In this document: positions 53,219 to 61,231 of the stretch, in pieces
Layout of the letters: the number at the start of each line of letters is the position of its first letter
How positions within the stretch are numbered: the stretch's first letter is position 1
Assembly: GCA_964016885.1 (NCBI GenBank)
Contig: CAXHJY010000369.1
Span: 1 to 61,231, forward strand
Origin: Eledone cirrhosa
Lineage: Eukaryota
Length of the DNA stretch: 61,231 nt
Reading direction: 5' to 3'
Notes under the pieces: model-generated
Told to the model about the DNA's origin: nothing
The model's input: the letters and a program-made list of their open reading frames with translations, nothing else
Database searches by the model: none
Program-made: the position numbers and the translations under genes

Positions 53219-53616
53219 GCTGCCAACTCGTTTTCGAGTACGGCCACTACTTTATATCCATGTAGGAGAACCCCTACCGATTCGCTGAACGAGTGTGACT
53301 TTTTAGTCCAGCCAGCGACTTGAAAACTCTGGTTCAAACACTACACTTGTGACAATTATTGACATATAGTGCTGGGCCCATGGTACTATGTGACGACAAG
53401 TGCAGAGAGATCTCCAGATATAAAGCAATGCCTGTGCCGTGAAGCTTTTATAGTGAGCAAAGGCACTGCACAAAGCCAGTCCCACTCTCTTAACCAAGAT
53501 CATATTTACCAAAAAGAAGAACAAGTCAACATCATTGGATACCATAAGAGTTGCAGGTGTTATATCAGAGTTTTCCTTCTCTTACAATTCTGCCTTGACA
53601 AAGGCTAAGGGGTCAT
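53216..53616 (-). mobile_element. Family A element, copy 6, 5'-truncated
   Basis: Sequence match; truncation at GGTCAT merges into (AT)n. Confidence 0.9.
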
Positions 53617-54045
<429 letters not shown>

Positions 54046-54087
54046 CAATATTAAATAAATGGAAAACTATATTTATAAAACCATATT

Positions 54088-54153
54088 TATTTCATTATAT
54101 ATATTTCGGGGATATCATATTAACAATATGCTATGCCTTCATCAGACAAAATA
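54088..54153 (-). ncRNA. Minimal type-I hammerhead ribozyme (HHR-2, intact AUA site)
   Basis: UAUUUUGU-CUGAUGA-stem II-GAAA-UAUAUA-UA-AUGAAAUA. Confidence 0.78.
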
Positions 54154-54506
54154 CAATATAAACAGTTTTATAGATAAATATATTCGACATACCGTAATAA
54201 ACATCAACTTCATTTGAAGAGGTTTACGCTAGCAGTGAAAATACAGAGAGAAAGAAAGAGAGAAAGAAAAGAGGGAAAAAAGAAAGAAAGAAAGACAAAA
54301 CGAAGAAAAAGAAGAAAAAGAAAAAGAAATGCATGGGACAAAAAAGAGAGATGGAAAATAGATAAAGCGAAGAGCTTCATGTAAAGCGACAGAAAGAGAT
54401 ATATATATATATATAGAGAGAGAGGAAATAGAGATAGATACATATATATATATATAGAAAATTAGGTAGTGTGAGGTCATTTTGAGTAAGTGTATCAATG
54501 ATACAT

Positions 54507-54541
<35 letters not shown>

Positions 54542-54842
54542 GCTCAAGTATTAATGTAAGGGAGATATAGAGAGATATAGAGAGAGAGAAAAAAAAAAAA
54601 AAAAAAAAAAATTTAAAAATAGCCAGACATATTCGAGGCGTAGAAAACCCTATGTTTTAATGTATTAGTATTTATAAAACTTACACTATATTGTAAATAT
54701 CAGTATTCCTGAATGAAACAAGTATTCACAATGTGTGAAAATTCATTATCTTATGTTTAGTTTTAAACGTAAACCTCTTCAAATGAAGTTGATGTTTATT
54801 ACGGTATGTCGAATATATTTATCTATAAAACTGTTTATATTG

Positions 54843-54908
54843 TATTTTGTCTGATGAAGGCATAGCATATTGTTAATATGATATCCCCGAAATATATATG
54901 ATGAAATA
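54843..54908 (+). ncRNA. Hammerhead copy (HHR-3) with G at the cleavage position, predicted inactive
   Basis: Identical to HHR-2 except AUG for AUA (G54900). Confidence 0.72.
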
Positions 54909-55041
54909 AATATGGTTTTATAAATATAGTTTTCCATTTATTTAATATTGTAAATATACTCCAATATTTGTCAAGTGCTTTTATATCAGTTATAAGATAT
55001 TGTACTAGTTGTAACCCAACAATTTTAAATATAACTTTGCA

Positions 55042-59906
<4,865 letters not shown>

Positions 59907-60202
59907 ATTCTATAAAATGCACACAATGTAGGTCCTGGGTACACAAGAGATGTAGCGGGATAGCAGGCAAACTAACAGGTAGGGAGAAATATGTATGCAG
60001 TAGATGTACAGGGAAATTAGACAGTAGAAGTCGCACTGATAGACATTTTGCAAATGCGAGAGGGCGCTATAGAAGTGGTGGATCATTGAAGCTCACGGTG
60101 GAGATGACGAGGGACCGTGACGAGTGGAGAGATGCTGTGCTGAATAAGACCCGTCCACCCTTGCAAGCAGGGAAAAGCGGACGTAAAATGATGATGATGA
60201 TG

Positions 60203-60203
<1 letters not shown>
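59907..60203 (+). mobile_element. RTE-clade LINE fragment: Cys-rich motif joined to the 3' end, with (GAT)n tail
   Basis: [24 protein letters not shown]...VCSRCTG; later [19 protein letters not shown] and the 3' UTR. Confidence 0.85.
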
Positions 60204-60235
<32 letters not shown>

Positions 60236-60394
60236 CATATACATATATATACATATACATATATATATATATACATATACATATATATATATATACATAT
60301 ATATATATACATATATATATATACATATATATATATATACATATACATATATATACATATACATATATATACATATACATATATATATATATAC

Positions 60395-60459
<65 letters not shown>

Positions 60460-60460
60460 C

Positions 60461-60533
<73 letters not shown>

Positions 60534-60564
60534 CATATATATACATATATATATATATATATAC

Positions 60565-60625
<61 letters not shown>

Positions 60626-60672
60626 TATATATATATACACATATATATATACATATATACATATATATATAT

Positions 60673-60745
<73 letters not shown>

Positions 60746-60768
60746 CGTATATATATATATATACATAT

Positions 60769-60834
<66 letters not shown>

Positions 60835-60977
60835 ATATATATACATATATACATATATACATATATATATATATATACATATATATATACATATATACAT
60901 ATACATATATATATATATATACATATATACATATATACATATATATATATATATACATATATATATACATGTATACA

Positions 60978-61051
<74 letters not shown>

Positions 61052-61114
61052 CATATATACATATATACACATATATATATATATATACATATATACATAT
61101 ATACACATATATAC

Positions 61115-61147
<33 letters not shown>

Positions 61148-61231
61148 CATATATATACATATATACATATATATACATATATACATATATATATATATAT
61201 ACATATATACATATATATACATATATACATA
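60204..61231. repeat. TA/TACA microsatellite
   Basis: Direct reading. Confidence 0.97.

Follow-up and report, generated by a model that had tools for sequence, protein, structure and literature searches.

What placed two hammerhead ribozymes head to head, and whether the single base by which they differ carries any meaning, are the questions raised by one locus in the window, by which we mean the whole 61,231-nucleotide stretch of Eledone cirrhosa DNA analyzed here (contig CAXHJY010000369.1, forward strand). A reading made from the sequence alone (referred to here as the sequence-only reading) had described 185-bp inverted arms that are identical except at 54096/54900, with the mismatch at position 17 of a type-I hammerhead. 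Direct comparison of 54044-54228 with the reverse complement of 54768-54952 upheld both statements: 184 of 185 positions match, the match stops abruptly at both edges, and the sole mismatch (T54096 versus G54900) gives A17 on the minus arm and G17 on the plus arm. In order, the ribozyme comprises an 8-bp stem I, CUGAUGA, a 31-nt stem II, GAA, the palindromic AUAUAUAU, and A17 (minus) or G17 (plus); the type-I core (CUGANGA, GAAA, UH, and three stems) is thus present, with the plus arm bearing G at H. The minus-strand copy (54088..54153), with the family allele A17 at 54096, was assigned by arm comparison, relatives, and covariation, and the plus-strand copy (54843..54908), with a private G17 at 54900, by arm comparison and family counts.

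Rfam models returned no hammerhead family at an E value of ≤10, the matches being microsatellite noise only, and identification of the hammerhead therefore rests on its anatomy and on its conservation in relatives. Among relatives in the fetched loci, the core and A17 were invariant, position 7 was variable (T, G, A, or C), and stem III was near-palindromic. Stem II of these relatives shows compensatory changes, with 8 of 13 stem II pairs changing on both sides. Across 13 sequences, 87.2% of cells were paired compared with 82.2% after shuffling, and there were 19 two-sided changes compared with 7.4, although the 13 sequences are related and 49 of 500 shuffles reached the stem II pair count of 8. 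As a monomer, the A allele has a predicted hammerhead fold of −0.9 kcal/mol against a minimum of −6.2 kcal/mol, so that self-cleavage would likely require a dimer or a protein, in keeping with PMC4209133, where PLE hammerheads are weak and depend on dimers. The young subfamily carries C at 54888 (hammerhead position 11.1), which places A.C at the foot of stem II, whereas T occupies this position in older relatives and in most reads from a related organism. The most expanded subfamily may, to judge from these bases, carry a weaker ribozyme.

The arms proved to be the overlap of two oppositely oriented halves of one insertion. Alignment placed the tail-less half at 54044..54767 on the minus strand: it is a 5′-truncated 3′ end of the element (unit positions 3194-3926), ends at a proximal end site beside (TA)n, and is 94% identical to a natural full copy (L041), the differences being mostly in microsatellite lengths. 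The tailed half, also placed by alignment, lies at 54768..55045 on the plus strand and runs from unit position 3742 to about 4020; its last ~93 nt (54953..55045) align to the start of the element's 5′ UTR, up to a distal end site. The locus had initially been delimited as 54044..54952, which stands for the arms but not for the end at 54952, because the ~93-nt tail (54953 to about 55045) belongs to the insertion. The halves meet at 54767/54768 without microhomology, and no second copy of this junction was found in the assembly. By repeat reading, the flanks are target microsatellites, (TA)n/(TACA)n on the left (53614..54043) and (TA)n on the right (55046..61231, the window end); no target-site duplication is readable at the insertion.

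Between the arms lies a 540-bp spacer (54229..54767, minus strand) with poly-T, TAAA, and CT-rich tracts on its sense strand. It had been taken for captured, largely non-Penelope sequence in a nonautonomous element, a proposal that we discard, since the spacer can be aligned over its full length with an autonomous element's 3′ UTR and represents the 3′ UTR of the inserted element itself; each of the 40 candidates scored was 100% identical to part of it. Captured host DNA was looked for in the spacer and not found, the 3′ UTR alignment refuting it at the window locus. It is scarcely credible that the locus is a retrozyme-like, nonautonomous element with captured host sequence. Such a reading would fit the absence of an ORF from the window copy and the very common occurrence of short insertions consisting only of the pLTR in the family, but every spacer base can be aligned with the 3′ UTR found in full-length coding copies, the 5′ ends differ among copies as expected of truncation, and a tandem monomer array was absent among 60 sampled loci. 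Retrozymes are noncoding tandem monomers unrelated to a coding body, whereas the window copy derives by truncation from a coding unit.

The arm is present in thousands of near-identical copies in the 3.0-Gb genome, in which we counted at least 4,388 hammerhead ends of the family. Full copies of the element occur in tandem; the unit of 3,926 bp consists of a 135-nt 5′ UTR, a 737-aa ORF, a long 3′ UTR of low complexity, and the end that bears the hammerhead, and an ORF of 737 to 738 aa was intact in five of the seven full-length copies examined. The protein is encoded by a single ORF, with a reverse transcriptase (RT) followed by a C-terminal GIY-YIG domain. It contains YRDD and IVY..YVG..R..E..N, in which Y, G, R, E, and N were invariant in all 45 aligned proteins. 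Searches of Pfam and of PDB sequences did not recognize the protein, but a fold search did, the top three matches to the predicted structure (pLDDT, 88.8) being telomerase RTs; the Pfam GIY-YIG model matched weakly in 3 of 45 relatives. The motifs RWR (positions 37-39, R replacing K of RWK), DKT (118-120, replacing DKG), the CxCx5C linker CNCRDRSKC (596-604), CDLC (694-697; CxxC), and CKH (721-723; CxH), the linker and the last two being kept in 41 to 45 of 45 proteins, are those given for the Hydra clade in PMC8557442 and would on that basis assign the element to this clade. GVKF at position 84 fits the GxKF pattern, stated in the same source as not conserved in the Hydra clade. The clade is characterized as lacking an IFD and, in the endonuclease, a CCHH motif; a single cysteine, at 618, was read by eye between the two GIY-YIG half-motifs. 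The best named homologue, from the cephalopod Argonauta hians, is 39% identical. Two further Hydra-clade traits, a hammerhead in the pLTR and insertion into (TA)n, are both present, and the 3,926-bp unit exceeds the clade's "generally <3 kb," which is a tendency rather than a diagnostic trait. By these sequence criteria, the locus is a 5′-truncated head-to-head insertion of an abundant, protein-coding Hydra-clade Penelope-like element (PLE) in (TA)n, and the copy is an ordinary member of a new family within a known clade. The earlier description of a young Penelope-like insertion bearing a type-I hammerhead is thereby confirmed, both halves matching the PLE.

The sequence-only reading had also proposed a special origin for G17, by preferential copying of uncleaved RNA or by A-to-I editing. 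An exact search with a 30-base context found 3,835 A, 6 G, and 1 T at position 17 genome-wide. A-to-G changes at nine other A positions added 31 matches (mean, 3.4 per site; a pooled count rather than one taken per site), against which the probability of at least six G17 copies is 0.14 to 0.16, and that of at least five, with the window copy omitted as ascertained, is 0.26 to 0.29. A control of 14 sites, which gave 553 extra matches and was swamped by subfamily variants, was replaced by these nine. With G in 6 of 3,842 copies, position 17 is not significantly more mutable than the other A sites, an outcome that the sequence-only reading had itself named as refuting its proposal and that leaves a special origin unsupported, although the point estimate, 1.5 to 1.7 times the control mean, is compatible with a weak excess. 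The G17 copies lie on at least three subfamily backgrounds; five of the six alleles are on the tailed half, a number too small to interpret, and the partner arm has A in all five copies with a partner, the remaining one having none within 9.5 kb. Among the arm pairs sampled, 12 of 34 were identical and 11 of 34 differed at exactly one base, some of the counted differences being gap-placement artifacts. On the sense strand, A-to-G made up only 1 of 40 arm-versus-arm differences and T-to-C made up 7, which argues against A-to-I editing as the source of the G. Preferential copying of uncleaved RNA by way of G17 fares no better: all 3,835 A17 30-mers span the cut site, so that uncut A17 RNA is the normal template. 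Neither a source lineage for G17 nor an ADAR signature was found when looked for. Moreover, "silenced," as the plus-arm ribozyme had been called, is too strong a word, since G17 slows tertiary-stabilized hammerheads without abolishing cleavage: all four described in PMC3884650 still cut, three of them 8- to 100-fold more slowly. Nor is the A17 form, supposed to be the live one, predicted to adopt the hammerhead fold as a monomer.

G17 in the window is likely a chance private mutation or an assembly error. A consensus error at 54900 in this unplaced 61-kb contig, which would bear on the origin of the base alone and not on the identity of the element, seems to us possible but the less probable of the two. 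The tailed half carries six private differences, the third highest number among 43 halves, five of them in the tail (54953..55045); two are insertions of a single G and one is a deletion, all within about 45 nt. The contig, too, is mostly microsatellite, and the junction lacks a second copy in the assembly. An error is harder to reconcile with a minus arm that matches the family at 185 of 185 positions, with the agreement of 184 of 185 arm bases of the tailed half with the family, and with five further G17 copies on large contigs, which indicate that the change arises elsewhere. Four sequencing runs examined carry diverged relatives rather than the assembled individual and so offer no confirmation of G54900; the two of them that consist of raw reads showed non-A at the site of 54900 in 145 of 15,994 and 181 of 19,765 reads. 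We regard as very improbable the idea that G17 is favored because ribozyme-dead or A-to-I-edited RNA evades cleavage and is copied preferentially. The six G copies against a control mean of 3.4, the share of G among non-A alleles (six of seven), the five of six on the tailed half, and the impairment of hammerheads by G17 (PMC3884650) would fit it, but the excess is not significant, 99.8% of copies spanning the site have A, no sense-strand A-to-G excess is present, A17 is invariant in all diverged relatives seen, and the partner arm was A in five of five cases even though variants are usually common to both halves. The genome-wide counts at position 17 and at the nine control sites largely refute it.

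The head-to-head arrangement itself was more informative at the level of the family. The sample comprised 60 consecutive insertion sites drawn from the first 100 matches listed for one contig (C1), with the last of these matches omitted. Raw head-to-head pairings numbered 50 (47 of a tailed with a tail-less half, 2 of tail-less halves, and 1 of tailed halves), of which 3 were dropped on inspection: L122, whose partner lay 4 kb away; L133, in which diverged neighbors had been paired; and L135, a tandem junction. The remaining 13 of the 60 sites were single or complex. Exactly one half bore the ~93-nt tail in 46 of the 47 head-to-head insertions (the one-tail rule), one half of each of these 46 pairs ending at about unit position 3926 and the other at about 4020. 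Five of the 46 pairs consist of halves without any overlap, which excludes copying of one half from the other. In 17 of 46 pairs (hand count), as in the window, the tail-less half reaches beyond the 5′ end of the tailed half by more than 20 nt; neither half, therefore, contains or copies the other. Family variants were common to both halves in 16 of 34 pairs, at a total of 54 sites, and rarer subfamily alleles were found in both halves of neighboring pairs. Shared variants point to one RNA or one source locus, and later gene conversion between arms could contribute. At unit position 3758, the same T-to-G difference between halves recurred in 3 of 34 pairs (L095, L096, and L126), a change far commoner there than at hammerhead position 17 and one that a single-template model leaves unexplained.

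The 5′ ends of the copies were also concentrated. In the main subfamily, 132 ends fell at unit position 3734, compared with 34 and 8 at the neighboring bases. Position 3734 is the A of an initiator-like TCACT, a word that also occurs in a rotifer pLTR (PMC3846280); the base that precedes it in the element is C. G nonetheless preceded the 3734 start in 42 of the 100 copies listed (hand count), compared with 4 of 42 at the neighbors (Fisher P = 1.4 × 10^−4), and the second subfamily had the extra G in 15 of 30. Of 40 such cases examined, 25 had a G that did not come from the partner half and 15 were ambiguous, G being findable in the partner sequence as well; several extra-G copies join straight onto (TA)n. 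T preceded the start in 48 of the 100 copies listed, and 11 of 20 fetched T cases were joins at a shared AC; microhomology joins may inflate part of the 5′-end peak. In full-length LINE-1 insertions, an additional G at the 5′ junction is recognized as the signature of a copied mRNA cap (PMC11702581). The extra G at unit position 3734 resembles such a copied cap, and 3734 is a likely transcription start of the family; in the window, the putative initiator lies at 54232..54238 on the minus strand, with its A at 54236, the assignment drawing on the 5′-end peak with extra G elsewhere. Hammerhead position 17 falls between position 3734, which is 140 nt upstream of it, and the two end sites, which are downstream; the usual template is thus RNA uncut by the hammerhead. 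Junctions of L161, L155, and L185 contain repeats of the first ~13 bases of the likely RNA 5′ end, each headed by an extra G, as if the RT had jumped repeatedly at the cap.

As a whole, we consider it probable that the locus is a truncated head-to-head PLE in (TA)n, that its G17 is likely due to chance, and that its mirror image likely arose from both cut ends priming on uncleaved sense RNA at two fixed sites ~93 nt apart. In the mechanism we propose, the GIY-YIG domain would cut both strands within (TA)n, and each 3′ end of the cut target would prime reverse transcription, one reaction from the proximal site and one from the distal site. Both would probably use one RNA, or RNAs of one source locus, and would halt at random or at the capped 5′ end of the RNA, after which the two cDNA ends would be joined bluntly or via short microhomology. 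The hammerhead, conserved at the family level, would not have to cut for insertion. An anole PLE in vitro likewise cuts and extends both strands, starts reverse transcription at two internal sites flanking the tail, and can dispense with hammerhead cleavage (PMC11167929). The more specific version, in which one RT-endonuclease complex acts with a capped, uncleaved sense RNA, each cut end priming at a different site ~93 nt apart and the cap G marking reverse transcription that reached the RNA 5′ end, we hold to be evenly balanced. If true, two-site twin priming would account for the one-tail rule and supersede the idea of antisense self-priming.

That idea, in which the inverted half is a product of self-priming or fold-back, perhaps with an antisense template (PMC3846280), would fit the variants common to both halves and for the many pairs whose halves have near-equal 5′ ends and meet at short palindromes. 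We nevertheless think it unlikely, since the halves of 5 of 46 pairs do not overlap, neither half contains the other in 17 of 46 pairs or in the window, and the extra G is located at the 5′ end of the sense strand. The searched literature yielded neither the cap-G signature nor a strict two-site twin-priming model for PLEs, though older Penelope papers may hold them.

Earlier work has described inverted partners, tails on one side only, and hammerhead pairs on opposite strands (PMC8557442, PMC3846280, and PMC4209133), dual hammerheads on opposite strands having been reported at separations of about 100 to 700 bp (PMC4209133). Standard PLE insertions as presented in PMC8557442 and PMC3846280 share with this family head-to-head inverted ends, a one-sided tail, palindromic junctions, and TCACT in the pLTR; their tail is 30 to 40 nt rather than ~93 nt, and the present sample puts a figure on the one-tail rule (46 of 47). 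The G added in front of the initiator speaks for a capped sense template rather than for the antisense self-priming of PMC3846280. Hydra-1_Obim of Octopus bimaculoides and the Hydra clade (PMC8557442) resemble the element in their RT-GIY-YIG ORF, motifs, hammerhead, and (TA)n targets, and the N-terminal part of the published Hydra-1_Obim protein looks similar by eye. Judged by eye rather than by alignment, however, the element is a distinct family: its unit is 3.9 kb rather than <3 kb, with a 1.4-kb microsatellite-rich 3′ UTR ahead of the pLTR; the hammerhead sequence listed for Hydra-1_Obim differs from that of the element; and Hydra-1_Obim is entered in that source without pLTR tandems, which are clear here. 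Poseidon of the green anole (PMC11167929) similarly cuts AT-rich DNA on both strands, has two internal RT starts bounding the tail, is a predicted dimer, and does not need hammerhead cleavage; it belongs to another clade, its RT start sites lie inside the ORF rather than in the 5′ UTR, and in vitro no strand difference in its start site was seen, a point against the proposed priming, whereas the two ends here almost always use different sites. The minimal type-I PLE hammerheads of PMC4209133 also have a long stem II and a palindromic stem III and are likely dimer dependent. In contrast with them, the element has an 8-bp stem I and a 2-bp stem III, and in the young subfamily stem II begins at its base with A.C (or with G-C preceded by an extra A) instead of the A-U of older relatives.

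Other repeats share the microsatellite surroundings. A second, related hammerhead element lies in (TA)n at 52841-53140 (core at 53046), with its tailed half on the minus strand and its tail-less half on the plus strand; the halves differ by one base within ribozyme stem III (GCGC versus GCAC), and relatives of this element occur at L076, L101, L058, and L240. Several older hammerhead families that share stem I and the core but differ in stem II were seen near young copies at L037, L041, L082, L105, L110, L118, L130, and L133, which indicates repeated insertion into the same (TA)n tracts. An ~400-bp repeat of 96% identity, each copy flanked by (TA)n, is found at 53217-53614, 51377-51772, 46770-47167, 47591-47988, 6627-7082, and 944-1263, the copies at 46770-47167 and 47591-47988 being mutually inverted; it is probably another microsatellite-targeting element. 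A SINE-like repeat at 22348-23556 consists of tandem 109- to 196-bp units with AT runs between them.

The single-base difference between the two ribozymes is of no import, being background mutation or error. The family is moderately important, and what deserves follow-up is the evidence on priming that it provides. PMC8557442 names the formation of tandem and inverted PLE structures as an open question, and PMC3846280 leaves template polarity open. This young family, with its intact ORFs and near-identical copies in the thousands, supplies a count for the one-tail rule, halves that do not overlap, and a G resembling a copied cap, and so allows a specific priming model to be tested with the in vitro system of PMC11167929. 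The family shows, in vivo, that the usual template is uncut at the hammerhead.
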